DNA of 64,000 bases from Sphyrna mokarran (Eukaryota), in contig JAGIQG010000015.1 of NCBI GenBank assembly GCA_024679065.1, positions 28,210,001-28,274,000 of the forward strand, written 5' to 3'. Within the stretch, counting starts at the first letter, position 1, and the number at the start of each line of letters is the position of its first letter. A model generated the notes under the pieces. The model worked only from the letters and a program-made list of their open reading frames with translations, was not told the origin of the DNA and searched no databases. Positions 15,055 through 56,150 of the stretch are shown here, one piece after another. The translations under genes and the position numbers were made by a program.

Positions 15055-15730
15055 TGTTCTAATCCTTGGCCACATCCTAAGACATGTAGCAAGATCTGAT
15101 TAGGGACAAATTTAGTTTAAAGTAGAGAAAGATGGAGATTTTGGAAAAATCCACAAGATTCATGGGTTTTGAAAAATTAAAATAAACTTTATTATACAAG
15201 TTCAGAAAGATAAAACAATTTACAATATGTATCTTATACTCTGACATTCAGGCTAAGTATGAGGTATGTGTGAATTAACTGATGAACTGTGGCCAGATAA
15301 ACCACACTACAGAGGACAGGATTTTCTCACCCTTCTGGAATCTTCTGGTCCAACCAAAGTCGACACCGTGTGGCAGGTTACCTGGTGGCAGGACAGCCAA
15401 GGCCTGCAAAGGTCCAGAAACTTTCACAAGACTGGAAGATCCTGCCTGTGGCCAATAGCTGGTTGGATCCACCAAGAGAAAACCCACTCAGGTGGGTGAA
15501 GTGGGGTGGTCAATCTCACCACTTAGAAGGTGCTGGTGGCATTACTATTCTGTCACAATAGGTAGCCAACTATGTACCAATAGTTGGCTACCTACCCCTT
15601 CTTGGCAGGTACCTTTTGCTGTTCAGACCCTGTCTTCAGCAGGTTCACAAGAGGCAAACTGCATCAGACATGCAACCCAAACTCCCCCTTTGCCTTCAAA
15701 ACCATGGCTTTGAAAAAATTCTGCACGTCA
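15055..15730 (-). mobile_element. LTR-like interspersed repeat
   Basis: tgttctaatccttggccacatcc and ccacaagattcatgggttttgaa match the reverse complement of 27790-27925. Confidence 0.45.
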
Positions 15731-16744: not shown

Positions 16745-16885
16745 AGAGAATCGTGTTAAAAAATTATTTAAATTTAATGACTTAACCATCAGACAACTAC
16801 TAGAATCATGTTAAAAGTCATTAAAATTTAATAATTTTTTACAAGTCAGATAAATTATATCAGAATCATGTTAAAAGATTAGATT
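16745..16885 (+). repeat. Degenerate tandem repeat, ~55-60-bp unit x3
   Basis: agaatc(g/a)tgttaaaa recurs at ~16747, 16802 and 16862. Confidence 0.6.
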
Positions 16886-18968: not shown

Positions 18969-19377
18969 CCGGCGGGCTGTTGGGTGGAAGATGGCTTAGA
19001 AGGGAACCACAGGACATGGTGTTTCCAAGCATCTGTTGCCCTTGTCCCTCTGGGTGGTAGAGATTGCAGGTTTCAAAGGTACTGATGATAGACCCTTAGT
19101 GAGTTATTGCAGTGTATCTTATAGGTAATTCTCCTTCAACTGAGTCGGCATCACAAACTAATATCCATATTCCACCAACACTTTTTAAATTTTGAATGAG
19201 ATTAGCAATATAATAATGATCAGATAATCATCTTTGTGATATTGATTGAGGGCTAGATATTGGCAAGGATACTGGGGATAACACCTATGCTCTTTGAAGT
19301 AATTCCATGGGATTTTTTATTTCCATCTCAGTTTAAAATTGCATCCGAAAGATGTTATCTGTGATGATATAATCTCC

Positions 19378-20428
19378 GTAAGAATTTAGCAACACCAATT
19401 ATTAATCCAACCGATTTATTTGATAGTAAAAAAGCGAGCTTTCAACACTCTTGTGTCTTCCTCAGGCATGTGCAGTCTTCTGGTCTGCAATAGCACACAT
19501 CAGCACAGACAGTCAGAGATTGCTGATTAGAATGCGAATCCTTACATCTAACCTGCTATTCAAGTGTTAAAGTGGCTACCAATGTGTGTGAAGGGGATCC
19601 TGAGCATTGTTAGAGAATTGTGTATTTTCTCCAGACAGCACAGTAAGTGAGGTTTTTTGCTAACCCAGGCAAGTTACGGGGGTTACAGATAGTGTGTCAT
19701 GAAGCCAAGATCTCTGTTAAGACCGTCCTCATGTGTGTGGAGCTTGGCTATCAGTCTCTGTTCAGCGACTCTGCGCTGTCGTGTATCACGAAAGCCCCCT
19801 TGAAGAACATTTACACCGCAGGTCGGAGGCCGAATGCCCATGACTGCTGAAGTGTTCGCCCACAGGAAGGGAACAATCACCAGGCAAAACAGTTTCCCTT
19901 CCTGTGGGCGAACACTTCAGCAGTCATGGGCATTCGGCCTCCGACCTGCGGGTAATGTTCTTCAAGGGGGCTTTCGTGATACACGACAGCGCAGAGTCAC
20001 TGAACAGAGACTGATAGCCAAGCTCCACACACATGAGGACGGTCTTAACAGGGATCTTGGCTTCAACGACACTATCTGTAACCCCTGTAACTTGCCTGGG
20101 TTAGCAAAAAACCTCACTTACTGTGCTGTCTGGAGAAAATACACAATTCTCTAACAATGCTCAGGATCCCCTTCACACACATTGTTAGCCACTTTAACAC
20201 TTGAATAGCAGGTTAGATGTAAGGATTCGCATTCTAATCAGCAATCTCTGACTGTCTGTGCTGATGTGTGCTATTGCAGACCAGAACACTGCACTTGCCT
20301 GAGGAAGACACGGGAGTGTTGAAAGCTCGCTTTTTTACTATCAAATAAATCGGTTGGATTAATAATTGGTGTTGCTAAATTCTTACTGAGTTCTTACCAC
20401 CCCAATCCAACGCCGGCATCTTTACATC
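19378..20428. mobile_element. Penelope-like element: ~495-bp inverted arms with GIY-YIG C-terminus and pseudo-LTR, plus a 3' tail; 14-bp TSD
   Basis: Arms 19378-19873 and 19894-20386 are near-perfect reverse complements. They encode PVGEHFSSHGHSASDLRV / NVLQGGFRDTRQRRVAEQRLIAKLHTHEDGLNRDLGF. ATGATATAATCTCC occurs at 19364-19377 and 20429-20442. Confidence 0.9.
20297..20330 (+). ncRNA. Minimal hammerhead-ribozyme-like motif; mirror copy on the minus strand at ~19434-19467
   Basis: CTGAGGA-A-GACAC-GGGA-GTGTT-GAAA-GCTC: both core boxes, a 5-bp stem II and a palindromic AGCT stem-III region. Stem I is weak. Confidence 0.55.
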
Positions 20429-22004
20429 ATGATATAATCTCCCAGAGATCTGTACTGAAGTGTCAGCCTTGGTTTTTATGCATTCAAGGGGATTTGAACC
20501 CAGGATCTTGTGGTTCAGAGGTGATAGTGCTCCAACTGACCCACAGCTAACATAAATATTAGATGCTACTGTCACTATATGCCCATGGTGTAGGGGTTGA
20601 AAGTTTATGATGGTGGGTAAGATACTGATCAAGTGGATGGAGTTGAGCTTCTTGGATGTTTAAGTTGCACTCATCCAGTCAAGTGATGGGTATTCTATCG
20701 TACTCCTTACTTGTGCTTTATAGATGGTGAACAGGCTTTGGGAAGTCAGAAAGTGAGTTATGTACCAATCCCAGTCCCTTGACATACTATTGTGGCCACA
20801 GTATTTACATGGCTGGTCCACTTAAGTTCCTGGTCAATGTTAACCCTCCAAGTGGTTAATAGTGGAGGATGCAGCAATGTACTACTATTGAACGTCAAGG
20901 GGAAATGGTTAGATTATTTCTTATTCCTGACATGAATTTTATTTGCCACTTACCAGCCAAAGCCTCAATCACGCCCAGATCTTGCTGCTTAGGACATGGA
21001 CTGTTTCAGTATCTAAGCAGTTGTAAGTGGTACTAAACATTGTGCAACATGAACAAACTTCTCACTTCTAGCCTTATATTGGAGAGGAGTAATTGATGAA
21101 GCAAAGATGGTTACACCAAGGACAATATCTTGAGGAATTCCTACAGCAATGCCCTGGGGCTGGAATTTTTGGCTCCAACAATCACAAACGCCTTCTTTGG
21201 TGCTGGGTATAACTCCAACCAGAGGAGAGATTTTCCTCCTATTCTCATTGATTTCAATTTTGCTAGGGCTCCTTGATGCTACCCTCAGTCAGATACTGCC
21301 AAGATATCAAAGGAAGGTATTCTCACCCCCACCTCTGCAATTCAACTCTTTTGTCCATATTTCAGCCAGGACTATAATGAGGTCTGGACCTGAGTGGTCC
21401 TGGCTAAACTCAAACTGAGAATAGATGAGCTGTTTGTTATTGAGCAAGTGCTGCATGATAATACTGTTGGCAATACCTTCCATCACTTTGCTCATGATTG
21501 AGAATGGACTGTTGGGGAGGTAATTGGCTGGATTGGATTTGTCCTGCTTTTTAAGGACACAATAGATCTTTACACTTTCCATATTGTCAGGTACATATCC
21601 ATATTGTAACTGTACAGGAATAATTGGCTATAGGTGTAACTGGTTCTGCAGCACAAATCTTTCTTTGTACAGGTGTCAGGGCCCATAATACTTACTGTGG
21701 GTATCCAATGCCTTTAGCCTTCTTTAAATATCACAAGCACTGAATCAAACTGTCTAAAAATTAGCAGCTATGATTGTGGGGATCCCTAGAGAAGGCCAAA
21801 GTGGATCATCCTCTAAAAGTTTGTTGCAAATGTTTCAGCATTATCTTTTGCACCGATATGCTGGGCTCCCTCATTATTGAGGATAAGGATGTTTATGGAG
21901 CCTTTGGTTAGTTGTTTAACTGTCTACCACCATTTCACAGCTGGATATGGTAGGGTAGGATTACAGACCTTTAATCTGATCTGTTAATTGTGGGATTTTT
22001 GTTT

Positions 22005-25959: not shown

Positions 25960-27245
25960 ACTTGATTCATGAAAAGGAAGTCGTACTTGATGAATTTACT
26001 GGATTTTTATGAAGATGTGACTGGTGCAGTAGACAGAGGGGAACCGGTGATTATGGTGTTTTTAGATTTCCAGAAGGTGTTCAATAAGGTGCCTCACAAA
26101 AGGTTGCTGCAGAAGGTTAGCTTATACAGAGTTGTGGGTAAAGTGCTAGTGTGGATTGGGGATTGGCTATCTAACAGGAAGCAGAGAGTTGGAATAAATA
26201 GGTGCTTTTCTGGTTGGCAGTTGGTGACTAGTAGAGTGCCGCAGGGATCACTGCTGGGGCCTCAACTGTTACCATATACATAAACGATCTGGAGGAGAGG
26301 GCTGAGTGTAGGATAACAAAATTTGCTGATGACACAAAGATGAGTGAAAAAGCGAACTGCATGGAGAACGTGGAAAGTCTGCAGAGAGATTTGGATAGGC
26401 TGAGTCATTGGGCGAGGACCTGGCAGATGGAGTATAACGTTAACAAAAATGAGGTTATCACTTTGGAAGAAATAATACTAGGATGGAATATTATTTAAAT
26501 GGTGAAAAGTTGCAGCATGCTACTGTGCAGAGGGATCTGGGTGTCCTTGTGCATGAATCGCAAAAACTCAGTCTGCAGGTGCAGCAGGTGATCAGCAAAT
26601 GGAATATTGGCCTTTATCACGTGTGGGATAGAATATAGAAGCAGGGAGGTCTTGCTGCAACTGTATAAGGCACTGATGAGGCCGCAACTGGAGTACTGTG
26701 CGCAGTTTTGGTCCCCTTATTTGCAAAAGGATATATTGGTCTTGGAGGGAGTACAGAGAAGGTTCAACAGGCTGATGCTGGAGATGAGGGGGATAGCTTA
26801 TGAGGAGAGATTGAATAGACTGGGCCTGTACTCGTTAGAGTTTAGAAGGCTGAAGGGAGATCTTATAGAGGCTTACAAGATAATGAAGAGGGTAAATAGA
26901 GTGGAGATAGATTCTTTCCACTTAAAAAAGAAACCAGAACTAAAGGGCATAGCCTCAAAATAAGGGGAGTGGGCAGTTTAGAACAGAATTGAGGAGGAAC
27001 TTCTTCTCTCAGAGAGTGGTGAATCTCTGGAATTCTCTGCCTGTTGAAGTGGTGGAGGCTACCTCGTTGAATATGTTTAAGTCACGGGTAAATAGATTTC
27101 TGATCGATAAGGGAATTCAGGGTTATGGGGAGCAGGCGGGTAAGTGGGACTGATCCACTTCAGATTAGCCATGATCTTATTGAATGGCGGGGCAGGCTGT
27201 AAGGTCTAGATAGCCTATTCCTCCTATTTCTTATGTTCTTATGTA
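25960..27245 (+). mobile_element. CR1-like LINE (RT to 3' end), frameshifted
   Basis: LDFQKVFNKVPH, VPQGSLLGP, KFADDTK, LEYCAQFWSP; ttcttatgttcttatg tail. Confidence 0.92.
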
Positions 27246-27335
27246 CTCTTATATGACGCAATTTTGATGAGATTAATTAACTCACAGTGGGACTAATACA
27301 TGAGTGATTTGTTGAAAGGTCCATGGAATCTGTTG

Positions 27336-27645
27336 TAAGAACATAAGAAATAGGAGCAGGAGTAGACCATCTAGCCCTTCGAGCCTGCCCTGCTATCTAA
27401 CAAGATCATGGCTGATTTGAAGTGGATCAGGTCCACTTTCCTGCTTTTTCCCCAGAACCCTTAACTCCCTTGTCTATCAGAAACTTATCTACCCATGACT
27501 TAAATATATTCAGTGAGGTAGCCTCCACTACTTCAATGGGCAGAAAATTCCAGAGACTCACCACCCTTTGAGTGAAGAAGTTCCTCCTCAACTCCGATTT
27601 AAACTGTCCCCTCCTTATTTTGAGACTGTGCCCTCTAGTTCTGCT
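27336..27645 (-). mobile_element. CR1-like LINE 3' fragment, same subfamily as 25960-27245
   Basis: RTRGHSLKIRRGQFKSELRRNFFTQRVV; taagaacataagaa tail. Confidence 0.9.
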
Positions 27646-29461
27646 TTTGGTTGCACCTGTCATTTAACTCTGTAGTGTGATGTTTATTACTGCAGTTCAT
27701 CTGTTGATTCACATGTACATTAAACTTAACCTGAATGTTAGAAATATCAGGTTTACGTACTGTAAATTGTTTTAACTTTTTGCTTGTTCAAAACCCATGG
27801 AATCTTGTGGCTTTATTCCCTGAGTAGGTGTCTTAATTCTCAACCTTTATCTACGTTAAACAAAATGTTATTGGTTCCTAACCATATCTCCCCCCATATC
27901 CTTGATGTGACCAAGGCTCATAACAAACTTCTCATTAAACTAAGGTTGGTCTACTAGTTTGGTGATAATGTAAAGTATATGGTGAACCATTAATTGTCAA
28001 CCAAAGGGAAATTAACTCTGTGAATTTAACTTGGAGCCAAAAATGCAATGCACACAATCAGGAACCAATCTATATCATTGGACACTGACACATAATGTGC
28101 AACCATTGCACGTACATAATGTGATACAATGCAGATTGGGAAACCAATTTAGTACTGAAGACCGACAGACCATGACTATGGGAACAAAAATTATATTACA
28201 GGTTGGATTTCCAAAATCTGGCTGTTTGAAATCCAAAAACCGGACATTTTTAAAAAATATTCCATTTGATATTCAGTTAAATTAAATTTTGATAAATTTG
28301 GGGCAATTTGGCTAGGCTATAGTTTTAGTGGTGTCCTGGACTAGTTATTGGATTTTCTGTTTTGTTCAGTGGTAGACCAGTCTAGTTCTTGTGCTCCAAA
28401 TCAACGCAAATGACTCTCAACTCCACCTGACTTGGCTGTCTGAAATCAGAGAAAATTTTAAATTCAGCATGGCCTTAATTCAGTGGGATTTTGATGTCCA
28501 ACCTACATTTATATATTGCACTTGTACACTGTGTAAATGAACATTAGAAGGCCCCTGATGAAAGCAAGCATATTGCACCAATGATATCCCAGGCTGTCCA
28601 CTCGTAGGGTTGATGCCTGGAAATAATTCGGAGCCTTAAATAAAATCAGCCGTGACATTATTGCACCACCTTGATTTGCTGGCAGCAGAGTATATGGTAA
28701 AGTTGTTGTAGAACTGAATATTCCCAAAACTAGAGAAGTAACTTTTGTTTCAATTCAATAAATAAAGGATTATGAAATATTTGATAATTTTTATGCAGTT
28801 AAAGGGATTGTGTGCAGTTTGATGACTTCCAGTCTCCATTGAGAAAACTCACACATTTCTTTGTAAAAAAACTTCCAAGATGTGTGCATTTTTCTTTTTT
28901 AAGTTGTTACTTTGCATTCATCCTTCAACTTGTAATTTTTAAAATGTTGAACTATATTCAACCTTGTTGAATATTTTTCATTAATTTAGGCAAGTAAAGG
29001 TTGTGCACCACACCAACCTTCATTTTTGTTGCTTCATACAATTTGTCTAGTTGTCCCAAAGAGTGGCCATTAAACAAGTTGCACTATATAGTTTTAAAAT
29101 GGAAGCGAATAAATGTTTGAAGGTAAAAAGACAAGGAAGGATATGAGGAAAGAGCAAAGAAATTAGACAAAACAAACAACTCTTTCAGGGAACTGCTGAT
29201 GGTGGTGCCAAGAATTGAATGACCTTTTCTGTATTGTAAAATTCTATGATTTCCAGTTTTGGAGCATTGATTTTTTTCTTTTTTTCCACTCCTTCCCCAG
29301 CAAAAGAATGCTTGGAGGCAGGACTATGCCAGCATTAATGCAAGTATCACACTCTGTTAAACTTCTAGGGTATACAGTTTTAACAGAGTGCTTTCACTTA
29401 CATCATACCATCTGGAATAATCCCACCTTCCCATTCTGCTGCTTTCTCACTCTCCATGCAG

Positions 29462-36959: not shown

Positions 36960-39240
36960 GTTGAGAAGAGATAACACACAATTAGAACTGCATTGCATTA
37001 AGATAGCAGGTGGTCAGATGTTCTCCAAGTTGGACATAAATCACATCTATCTTTAGCTTGAATTGAATGAGTCTTCCCAGAAATATGTGATGAACAACAC
37101 ACACCAGGGGTTACACAGATATATTCGATTGCTTTTCAGGGTCTTGTCAGCTTGCACCATATTCCAAATCATCACTTCAAGGGCTACCCAGTGTGACAGT
37201 GTACTTACATTGTGTTCTTGTCATGGCGGCTTCGGAACAAGAACACCGGCAAATTTAGATGAAGGTTTGCAGTGATTCTCAAGAGCTGGAGTACATTTGA
37301 AGAGGAAAGAATGTGCCTTTCAAGCAGCTGAAGTGACCAATTTAGGCTATTGTGTAGATGGAAAAGGGTTACACTCAATTGAGAAAAAATAAAAACTGTC
37401 AAAGAAGCACCAACTCCAAGCAGCACTATGTAGTTATCCTTCTCGAAATAGTAACTTATATAGAAAATTTATCCCAAATTTGGCTTCTATACTGGCCTTT
37501 TGCAAACCCTATTATGAAAATACCAAAAGTGTTCTTGGGATCGTCCACAAGCAGAGGCTTTTGACAAAATTAAATGTCAGCTATTGCCATCTAACTTATT
37601 GGCCCATTTTGATCCCAAGAAAGAACTCATGCTGTCATGTGATGTTTCACCATACAGTGTTGGGGCAATACTTGCACATCACTGGAAAGACAGGACCGAA
37701 AAGCATATCGCATATGCACCCACCACCCTTTCAGATTCAAAACAAAGGGATTCTCAAATCGGGGCCATTTTATTTGATGTAAAAGAAATTCTATTAATAT
37801 GTCTATAGCAGATGTTTCATAGTTACTGGCCACAAGCCCTTACTGTGACTATTTAAAGAAGACAAGGTAAGCCCACTCCCACCCCATTCCCTCCTACGGG
37901 ATACAACTTTGGGCCTTATTACTTGCAGTCTATGAGTATCTTCTAGGGCACTGCCCTGGAAAACAGATAGCTAACTGTAGGATCATATACCTTAGTTTAG
38001 ACAAGATTGGGTCTTTTTGGGTGCACTGAGCTGCCTCCTGTTGCCAAAAGCCTGGCTCCTCTACTGCATTAGAACAGGACCCTAATTTTTTTTTTGGAAA
38101 CTCTGCCAGTATCCACAAGGCAGGTTAAGACCTGGACCCAAAAAGATCCAATTTTGTCTAAAATAAGGTATATGATCCTACGCGGTGAATTTGGATGATG
38201 GCCCTCTGAAGAATCGAAACCGTGGCTGGAATTCTGCAACTTCACTTGCAGCTGAGATTCTCTGTCCTGTTGCAGTGAATGAACTGAATTCTCCATTCTC
38301 ACTGGCAGTGATAACAGGATGTGTGACATTGGAGAATCTCGACGCCTACCTAGATAAAACAGATGAGCTTAGTGTCAAAGATGGGAGCATTCTCTGGGGA
38401 TCCCACCCACAGTGCAATATTTGACATTAGCAGAACTATATGATAGCCACCCTTGAGTATCAAAGATGAAAATGCTAGCTAGTAGTTACGTCTAGTGATC
38501 TAACCTCTACTCAGATATTATGGATTTGGTAAGTGGTGCGATTCAAGAGAATCAAAACTCTCTCCCTACATCCTTGGGAATGGCCTGGCAGATTGTGGGT
38601 ATGTGTACATGTGGACTTTGCAGACTGCTTCATGGGTTCCATGTTTTTAATCATGATAGGTGCATACTCCCAAGTAGTTGGAGGTGCATCGCATGGGTTC
38701 CACAAGCTCTCATGCTACAATCGAGAAATTATGATAAAGTTTCTGCATGCATGGAATACCAGAAATACAGATTTCTGATGATGACGCAGCCTTTAACAGC
38801 AGTGATTTCCAGAACTTTTTTGGGTCCAGAACTTTGTGCTCTCCAATAGTATCTGACACATTCAAACAGCATCTTATCCCCAGTTGTCAAATGCAGTGGT
38901 GGAATGGGAGATGCAAATTTTCCAAATTGGCATGAAAAAGCAACCGGTGGCATCCATGGAGACCAAATTGGCATAATGTTTGTTTGCCTAGAGGAGCACA
39001 GCTCACACAACAACAGAAATTGGTCCAATGGAACAACTAATGGGCTGGCAGCTTATACACGACTGAGCCCACTATTTCCAAATCTGACAGGAGGATAGAG
39101 TCCCAGCAAGAAAACCAGAAAATAAATCCCAATTCTGCAAGAGCAGAAAGAACATTTATTTCGGATGATCTGATTCACATGAGAAACTTTGGAGATGGTC
39201 CCTGGGATCATTTTGGAGAAAACAAGACCAGTGCCTTATA
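36960..39240 (+). mobile_element. Decayed Gypsy/Ty3-like LTR retrotransposon pol (RT, RNase H, integrase)
   Basis: GGQMFSKLD, NTHQGLHRYIRLLF, LLAHFDPKKELMLSCDVSPYSVGAILAH and LHPWEWPGRLWVCVHVDFA in Gypsy domain order, with many stops and frameshifts. Confidence 0.85.
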
Positions 39241-53502: not shown

Positions 53503-53681
53503 CAAAACTTACTGAAGTTGGCAGATTTTGGTTCCTGTAGGAGTGTCTTCTCAAAGCAGCCATATACAGAATATATTTCCACTCGATGGTATCGAGCCCC
53601 AGAATGCCTTCTTACAGATGGGTACTACAGTTTCAAAATGGACATCTGGAGCATGGGTTGTGTATTTTATGAAATAACAAG
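53503..53681 (+). CDS. MOK: MOK exon 7 (DFG, TEY activation loop, APE)
   Basis: cag|[61 protein letters not shown]|gtgaag, 179 nt. No later exon found in the window. Confidence 0.97.
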
Positions 53682-53984: not shown

Positions 53985-54890
53985 CAAACAAAGGACAAAA
54001 GTAGTACAGCACAGGAACCGCCACTTTGGCTCACCAAGCCTGCACTGACGTACAAAGCCTTTCTAAAATGAAGACCATTAGCCTCTATTTGGCCCATATC
54101 CCTGTATTCCTCCCTATTCGTGTAACTGTCAGGATGCTTCTTAAACATTCCCATTGTATCTGCTTCTACCACATTCTCTAGGAGCATATTCTCAGGCATT
54201 TATTAGCCTTCCCCCCTTTTACCTTAAATTATGTTCCCTAATAATTGATAATTCTACCTTCGGGGGTGGGGGGAGGCTCTGAGTATCTATTCTATCCAAG
54301 CCTCTCATAATTTTGTAGACTTCTTTCAGGTTGCCTCTCAGTCTCTGATGTTCAGGTGCAAATAAACGAAGTTTGTCCAATCTCTCCTTGTAGCTATACC
54401 CTCCAAACCAGGCAATATCCTGGCAAACCTTTTCTGTACCCTTTCTAAAACTTCCACATCCTTCTGGTAGTATGGCGACCAGAACTGTATGCAATATTCC
54501 AAATGTGGAGTAACCAAAGTCCTGTACAGCTCCAACATGATTTGCCAATTTTTATACTCTGTGCCCTGACTGATGAAGGCCTTCTTATTCACCTTATCCA
54601 TTTGTGTTACGACTTTCAGGGAATTATAGATCCATGTGCCAGGAACCCTCTGTATTTAATGCTTCTAAGGGTTTGCTTACTATATACTTCCCTCCTGCAT
54701 TTGTGTTTGCACCTTGTGTTTGTTCAGATTAAATTCCATCTGCCACTTTTCTGCCCAAGTCTCCAACATATCTTTATTTTGCTCTGTCTTCTGACAATCC
54801 TCCTCACTACCTGCAGCTTCCTCAATCTTTGTATCATTTGCAAACTTACTAACAGACCACCTACATTCTCCTCAAAATCATTTACATGTG
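53985..54890 (-). mobile_element. CR1-like LINE 3' part, degraded
   Basis: HLEYCIQFWSPYYQKDVEVLERVQKRF. Confidence 0.9.
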
Positions 54891-55155
54891 GCCTCCTTCA
54901 GCAGCCTCCTCCAGCCTTGTAAACCATTCCCTCCCAAACTGCATGTTCATCTGACCTTTTGTAATCCCCTACCTTTCTTTGACCCACCACTCATAGTCAT
55001 GTCTTCAGTTGGGCTCCATGCACTGAAATTCTCTCCCTAAACTTCTCCACTTCTTAACCTCCATGTCTTCCTTTTAAGACCCTCCTTGACTTATTGCAAT
55101 TTTTAAGGATGGTCATCATATTAGTCTGTTTCAAAACTGCTGGTACTTTCTGTAT

Positions 55156-55345
55156 GTGGAAATGCCGGTATTGGACTGCGGTAAACATAGTAAGAAGTAT
55201 CACAACAGCAGGTTAAAGCCCAACAGGTTTATTTGGTAGCAAAAGCCACTAGCTTTTGGGCTGAAGGGTCAGAGCCTGAAAGCTAGTGGCTTTTGCTACT
55301 GAATAAACCTGATGGATTTTAACCTGGTATTGTGAAACTTCTTAC
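55156..55345. mobile_element. Miniature Penelope-derived hairpin element with a one-sided tail and 14-bp TSD
   Basis: GGTACTTTCTGTAT at 55142-55155 and 55346-55359; inverted arms ~55190-55262 and ~55273-55345; tail 55156-55189 homologous to 20387-20428. Confidence 0.85.
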
Positions 55346-55724
55346 GGTACTTTCTGTATCCATTGACTAGATAATGATTGTCAACACCTCATAAATTTCC
55401 TCCTTAGTGTCTCTTAGCTTTCTTTGATAAATATGTTCCATCCAAGGGGATTAATTGGTTTTCAAATCTTTTAAACCTAATTTAGGACTTTTATCTTTTT
55501 TATTTAAAGATCATTCATTTTGCCCTGCGCTGTGTGTGTATGAAAGAGGTGGCCTTGTGAATACTTGGAGAAAGAAATTATTCAGAATATTAAATTTCCT
55601 CAGTTTCAGGTTCATTTGTTCAAATACTGTAAATATCTTTTACTGTTATGATTTGTCTCTGCAGCAATTCTTCTTTCTAGGCTTCTGTTGCCTCCTTTGA
55701 TTATTGTTAACATATTGCTGCATA

Positions 55725-56150
55725 GAATCATTGAATAATGTAGCATAGAAGAAGACCATCTGGCCCATCATGCCTATGTTAACTCTCTGAAAGAACTAAC
55801 TAATTCCTCCAATTTCTTTACTATTTCCCCATACCATTGCAAATTTTCATCTTGAAGAATTTATACAATTCCCTTTTGAAAGTTATTATTGAATCTTGCA
55901 CAAGATTTCAGACGGTACATTCCAGATCACGATAACTCTGTAGGAAAAATTGTTTTCCTTCTTGCCTGTTGTTCTTTTGCCAATTACCTTTAAATCTGTG
56001 TCCTCTATTTATTGACTTTTCTACAACTGGAAACAATTTCTCCTTACTTAATCCATCAAAATGTTTCAAGATTTGAACATCACTATCAAATCTTCCTTTG
56101 GCATTTGCTCTAAGGAGGACAATCCCAGTTTCTCTAGCTTTTCATATGTT
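55725..56150 (-). mobile_element. Degraded CR1 3' end
   Basis: Similar to 9770-10150 and 57960-58350. Confidence 0.6.

Follow-up and report, generated by a model that had tools for sequence, protein, structure and literature searches.

The hairpin at 55142-55359 of the window (the stretch of 64,000 nucleotides of Sphyrna mokarran DNA analysed here) is almost certainly an insertion, dead and of stump size, of a Penelope-like element (PLE) with an endonuclease, in the form of an inverted 5'-truncated copy plus tail. It is composed of two 5'-truncated 3' ends of a high-copy PLE family placed head to head, and the whole insert is a hairpin of about 190 nt in which both copies are only about 75-85 nt long. 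As judged from sequence, its assignment to the PLEs runs via a 68% likeness to a larger element of the same window and via its hammerhead-plus-tail layout. Taken as a whole, a PLE stump that was integrated through two cDNAs is the explanation we consider best, and we hold it to be probable. The parts of this small element, which sits downstream of a kinase exon, are as follows.

53503..53681, + strand: exon of the MOK kinase that precedes the small element, limits approximate (translation with DFGS...TRWYR)
55142..55155, unstranded: left target-site duplication (TSD), 14 bp, exact and unique in the window
55156..55189, - strand: PLE tail, 34 nt, on one side of the element only (alignment to the tail of the large element and to family contigs)
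55190..55262, - strand: tailed arm, 73 nt, a 5'-truncated family 3' end that stops in hammerhead helix II (highest family depth)
55263..55272, + strand: unpaired loop, 10 nt, additional sequence on the 5' side of the tailless arm (last part of the catalytic box and 5' strand of helix II)
55263..55289, + strand: broken minimal hammerhead with no complete CUGANGA box (cut predicted to follow 55285 and, in mirror image, to lie between 55250 and 55249)
55273..55345, + strand: inverted arm without tail, 73 nt or, counting the loop, 83, terminus TTCTTAC (self-alignment of the arms)
55346..55359, unstranded: right TSD, 14 bp, exact match to the left copy

The host gene is presumably MOK, a name that we take from the initial annotation and from MOK motifs. 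The designation of the site as intron 7 in that annotation is based on the human exon numbering; neither exon 1 nor the exon after the small element was found here.

The two 14-bp direct repeats are identical and have no other occurrence on either strand of the whole window; in a control of 20,000 random position pairs with the same spacing and a slack of +/-5 nt, from which the small element itself was excluded, none carried an exact repeat of 12 nt or more. The last 2 nt of the left duplication also match the end of the family's tail, so that there is a short microhomology at the tail junction. The arms, 10 nt apart, are identical at 63 of 73 positions (86%), and the 156-nt hairpin that they form has a folding energy of -103.2 kcal/mol (z -16), a stability that was reached in 0 of 200 shuffles. 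The initial annotation had described a hairpin of ~155 nt with GTAAGAA/TTCTTAC termini, exact 14-bp duplications around it and a homologous tail on one side, and all three descriptions hold, the tail being the 34 nt that align with the tail of the large element. By eye, five of the ten arm mismatches would be G-U pairs in the RNA of the + strand, that of the MOK pre-mRNA, versus two in the minus strand; both TG/CA double differences between the arms read TG on the + strand, and these are too few for a bias to be claimed.

The larger element, about 1 kb in length and 19.4 kb into the window, served for comparison and has the following parts.

19364..19377, unstranded: left TSD, 14 bp, exact match to 20429-20442
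19378..19873, - strand: tailless arm, 496 nt; it holds an endonuclease C-terminus (GIY-YIG type, 19686-19817) and, at 19465, an intact hammerhead core
19874..19893, + strand: loop, 20 nt, additional coding sequence on the 5' side of the tailed arm (endonuclease frame compared with protein P0002)
19894..20386, + strand: tailed arm, with the endonuclease end and an intact hammerhead core at 20299
20387..20428, + strand: tail, 42 nt including a second TTCTTAC (sequence comparison)
20429..20442, unstranded: right TSD, 14 bp, exact match to the left copy

Its arms form an almost perfect palindrome, with 8 mismatches (8/492) and 5 gap positions between them; TTCTTAC is repeated at the boundary of arm and tail (20387-20397), and the tail thereby reaches its 42 nt. 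A 44-aa piece of its endonuclease matched 11 proteins among 17 candidates, while a Pfam search with a 38-aa piece gave no match, and a protein atlas gave unnamed clusters at 0.92 and one GIY-YIG cluster at 0.81, no more than a lead. One of the 11 is a shark protein of 643 aa, 77% identical, which combines a reverse transcriptase (RT), the motif DKG and a linker of the form CX4CX2C with a GIY-YIG domain that has two cysteines inside it; a CX2-5CxxC linker between RT and endonuclease is present in P0005, the close relative of the large element. Because such a linker is the mark of the Neptune and Nematis clades in PMC8557442, the large element is probably to be classed as a Neptune- or Nematis-type PLE by the definitions set out there. 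Two annotated shark proteins, P0006 and P0009, carry the PLE endonuclease end fused to a pyrin domain or an XRCC5 isoform, either as an annotation artefact or through exonisation.

Both elements have the same layout of parts, in the order hammerhead, arm and tail, and each is flanked by an exact 14-bp duplication, the small one being devoid of coding sequence. Their similarity is detectable by blastn (68% over 96 nt, E 0.011) and by nhmmer (E 3.4e-5). Since they are only 68% alike and their arms differ at 10/73 versus 8/492 positions, they belong to separate families and were inserted at separate times. The initial annotation had seen in the small element a miniature of the large Penelope palindrome: its Penelope-like nature and the common layout stand, but its origin as a miniature of the large element was rejected on account of the low likeness. 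The related proposals, namely that two independent insertions share one architecture and that a MITE-looking hairpin arose by retrotransposition, are borne out. The 14-bp stagger rests on these two elements only. In tail orientation both duplications (55142-55155 and 20429-20442) read AT-N10-CC, and GG follows the tailless end in both, a possible target preference with n=2.

No third copy of either family was found in the window with nhmmer and fuzzy motif scans, nor was an autonomous partner, with an ORF for RT and GIY-YIG, found for the small element's own family. A degenerate motif of the arm had 0 loci in viral contigs; its 2 metagenome loci were discarded as unrelated high-GC, coding-like DNA in which no arm, tail or hammerhead adjoined the motif. 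Other inverted repeats of the window had no flanking repeat that would fit a TSD. Among them, the one at 1494-2396 has 322-nt arms (90%) separated by 259 nt, bears no likeness to either PLE family and lies between flanks in which no repeat of at least 7 nt was found; at 26931-27647 lie two inverted LINE-like 3' ends, ~77% alike, around which no flanking repeat was found; and a pair of 49-nt arms at 92% (37977-38181), an AT-rich palindrome of 85 nt (16757-16841) and a 36-nt hairpin (15559-15594) have no convincing TSD.

The family to which the small element belongs was followed in contigs of four runs aligned to a 961-nt stretch (54780-55740). The contigs aligned there numbered 29,439 (X1), 18,818, 15,454 and 10,700, part of them on a second high-copy repeat at about 54790-54890, upstream of the small element, which gives a depth peak in all four runs. 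In X1 the summed depth, which is not a copy number, was 4.7 million in the arm versus 18.5 in the unique flank. Each of the four runs has a pile of contig ends at 55189 (584, 447, 373 and 234 contigs), and a second pile is found at 55154 in X1, up to which 255 family contigs align; these are two preferred 3' termini, 35 nt apart. On the other side, 308 contigs of X1 run past 55345 into the same tail. At the inner end of the arm, 840 contigs of X1 leave at 55256 and 545 at 55259 and enter a native minimal hammerhead with helix II and catalytic box, so that 1,385 of the 29,439 contigs show this read-through, which likewise occurs in the other three runs (24 rows listed, 1,153 more). The consensus of these read-through copies has the core, helix II and GAAA, of which the small element keeps a remnant only. 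Head-to-head joints were also met in other copies: among the 15 listed of 62, the left-arm ends range from 55198 to 55256 with no two alike and the arm lengths differ by 0 to ~40 nt, it being noted that copies with longer arms are invisible on this reference, that assemblers break at palindromes and that alignments stop where subfamilies differ.

These data bear on two readings in which the hairpin would be a mobile unit in itself. A MITE derived from a DNA transposon would be short, palindromic, non-coding and enclosed by direct repeats, as the small element is, but the inverted repeat does not adjoin the left duplication, from which it is separated by the 34-nt tail, the copies of the family are mostly not palindromic and run into the hammerhead, their internal structure is not uniform and their joints are scattered, and the large element, its homologue, has coding sequence for a PLE endonuclease. 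A TSD length of 14 bp is not known for the common DDE superfamilies. A DNA transposon with terminal inverted repeats was therefore rejected, by reason of the interrupted left terminus, the scattered joints and the endonuclease of the relative, and we regard this origin as extremely improbable. The second reading is a non-autonomous palindromic unit, similar to a retrozyme or a SINE, that is transcribed and mobilised whole. In X1 the summed depth across the loop is ~1,100, compared with 18.5 in the flank, so some other contigs do cover the centre, and a few cross it with small deletions, as this reading would predict. They are however a tiny share when set against the 4.7 million of the arm, and the read-through of 840 and 545 X1 contigs into the native hammerhead, the diversity of the 15 listed joints (of 62) and the lack of a whole catalytic core on either arm argue against it; we consider such a unit very unlikely. 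The head-to-tail tandem with intact hammerheads that distinguishes retrozymes was not found either, and membership in that group was set aside.

With the small element identified as a PLE stump, the age of the insertion can be approached through orthologous sites. Contigs of X2 and X6, whose right flank has 27-28 differences in 421 nt, continue into the tail and the right arm before they break inside the repeat; since they enter tail and right arm, the insertion is common to both organisms. The copy is old, because its arms differ at 10 of 73 positions. In X9 one contig of 1,158 nt (54975-55739) spans the site unbroken: its left flank has single-copy depth, its alignment breaks at 55089, and it then has 522 letters where the window has 261 (261 extra) before the match resumes from 55351 rightwards, with no arm shown beside it and its joint row not among the rows listed. 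This suggests that the site is empty in X9, and probably that an unrelated insertion lies next to the empty site.

The centre of the small hairpin falls in a hammerhead remnant, as the initial annotation had proposed for the fold-back point. A motif scan found no intact hammerhead core in the small element, neither arm keeping the whole catalytic core, and an Rfam scan of the window gave 0 matches at the gathering score. The predicted cut was placed by means of the usual hammerhead numbering. For the position of the cut site, that numbering was combined with the layout of minimal hammerheads given in PMC4209133. Both arms reach beyond the predicted cut on its upstream side, by 13 and 23 nt, and the template RNA of the small copy was therefore uncut. 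For the same distance of 13-23 nt we rejected the idea that cleavage by the ribozyme had set the centre of the small copy, and the further idea that the centre is simply the loop of helix II was rejected because the loop of the element carries extra catalytic-box sequence; this extra sequence also makes the head-to-head join asymmetric. Thus the suggestion that the ribozyme region defines the turnaround point of the small copy found no support, the centre being off the cut site and other copies being scattered or read through; likewise the comparison of symmetry centres across copies, which had been proposed as a check, gave scattered positions, the 15 joints listed (of 62) being all different. 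The loop matches the family read-through consensus in + orientation (by eye) and aligns to the hammerhead of the large element in + orientation only. It belongs to the tailless arm in the small element versus the tailed arm in the large one.

We infer that integration proceeded through the synthesis of two cDNAs, that these were joined and that one RNA served both arms, and we give a mechanism with two nicks and two cDNAs about an even chance. In this mechanism the GIY-YIG endonuclease would nick both target strands 14 nt apart, and each nicked 3' end would prime reverse transcription on uncut RNA of the element, the tailed arm starting at an outer site and the tailless arm at an inner site ~34 nt upstream. 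Both cDNAs would reach about the same 5' limit, in the small element within the hammerhead, and they would be joined via a microhomology of 1-2 nt and then filled in. By eye, the microhomology at the junction measures 1 nt in the small element and 2 nt or more in the large one, and in the small element the distance from the start of helix II to the end of the tail is 113 nt. Two nicks would account for the one-sided tail and for both loop polarities. The near equality of the arms (73/83 and 496/513 nt) needs an added assumption, either one RNA for both or cDNAs that run together; also to be counted against the two-cDNA mechanism, the in vitro data come from the Poseidon clade. The hairpin would then be a by-product of integration.

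The initial annotation had proposed a stereotyped fold-back mechanism. In the form considered here, a cDNA started in the tail would snap back, or self-prime on an antisense template, and the endonuclease would trim the second arm at TTCTTAC. Near-equal arms follow directly from it, the large element with its loop on the tailed arm suits it, and a 4-bp CTGA/TCAG stem surrounds the centre in the minus-strand fold. Moreover, self-priming on an antisense template is favoured in PMC3846280, where a sense template is not excluded, and resolution of the tail by the endonuclease is proposed in PMC8557442. In the small element, however, the loop is on the tailless arm, and the tail cannot be copied from a first strand that lacks it unless the template is switched once more; in addition, the arms of the listed joints in other copies differ by 0 to ~40 nt. 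Loops on opposite arms argue for two nicks that each primed a cDNA and against a simple snap-back, so that fold-back is not supported as a stereotyped mechanism, and we consider it possible but rather unlikely.

Central deletions of palindromes are common, and the polarity of the loop, which speaks for two cDNAs, could also come from a later loss of the middle of a longer head-to-head insert through palindrome instability, in which case the centre would say nothing about integration. The small copy is old enough for this, with its arms differing at 10/73, and the scattered joints of other copies could likewise be deletions. Nevertheless the young 1-kb element keeps its almost perfect palindrome with a 20-nt loop, and no longer orthologue was seen, the contigs of X2 and X6 ending inside the repeat; we therefore find a later deletion improbable.

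The layout of the small element is one already published for PLEs, here at the smallest size. Arkhipova et al. 2013 (PMC3846280) give an inverted pLTR, a tail of 31 bp and TSDs of 8-10 bp as typical Penelope structure, Craig et al. 2021 (PMC8557442) describe an inverted 5'-truncated copy and a tail of 30-40 bp as common to PLEs, and both inverted copy and tail are among the PLE curation features of PMC8969392. With the endonuclease-bearing (EN+) insertions of the first two papers the small element shares the head-to-head inverted 5'-truncated copy, a short TSD, a tail at one end (34 nt here, 30-40 bp there) and a hammerhead in the terminal repeat. It differs in its TSD, 14 bp as compared with 8, 9 and 10 bp in rotifer PLEs, and in its copies cut to ~75-85 nt, unlike the EN+ insertions described there.

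In the green anole element Poseidon_Ac (Frangieh et al. 2024, PMC11167929), the protein, for which a dimer is predicted, both cuts and extends the two strands; reverse transcription starts at two sites with the tail between them, mainly at the one 111-118 nt past the start of the ORF at stem II, and uncut RNA is the template, the RNA-seq reported there having no reads that end at the ribozyme cut. The small element is similar in its two termini a tail apart, the outer one ~113 nt from stem II, and in its uncut template, whereas Poseidon_Ac is of the Poseidon clade and studied in vitro and the large element here is probably of Neptune/Nematis type. Minimal hammerheads of metazoan PLEs have no helix III and a palindromic 15.2-16.2 pair (Cervera and De la Pena 2014, PMC4209133), and in Schistosoma the same paper reports pairs of hammerhead motifs 100-700 bp apart on opposite strands; this is the layout of our large element, while in the small one the ribozyme is broken by the junction. 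The non-LTR retrozymes of bioRxiv 10.64898/2026.07.22.740005 are, like the small element, non-coding, PLE-related and hammerhead-bearing, but they are head-to-tail tandems and it is head-to-head with a broken ribozyme. Searches of openly available papers gave none that deals with palindromic PLE inserts of stump size in sharks, with how long the TSD is in this clade, or with copies ending at the cut of the ribozyme.

Although the centre of the small copy lies off the predicted cut, some other copies come close to it: 6 of the 19 distinct joints listed (of 62 plus 53 rows) end at 55248-55251, at most 2 nt from the predicted position. Compared with a uniform background, P ranges from 0.002 to 0.26 according to the rows and the span used, and from the first joint table alone it is 0.12 (3 of 14 listed); the joint rows listed were selected for display, and two of the six near the cut possibly represent alleles of a single locus and need not be joined head to head. 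A subset of copies that end at the ribozyme cut is thus a lead and not a result. We venture, as a doubtful proposal, that a measurable share of shark PLE inserts derives from RNA cleaved by the ribozyme, with the arm ending at the cut, together with a fixed endonuclease stagger of 14 nt. Cleavage by a hammerhead in vivo during PLE retrotransposition was not shown by the in vitro work and RNA-seq of PMC11167929.

As a single locus, the small element is of little weight, being an old intronic insert of known type. PLE stumps nonetheless look like MITEs or pre-miRNAs, and caution is therefore advisable in annotation. Copies of the small family are very numerous in shark genomes, and their TSD length, the polarity of their loops and the position of their arm ends relative to the cut could separate the models for the inverted copy of PLEs and bear on hammerhead activity in vivo. 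If the proposal of cleaved templates and a fixed stagger were true, tens of thousands of family stumps would record the cleavage of a minimal hammerhead in vivo during retrotransposition, and also the geometry of an integration with two nicks and two cDNAs.
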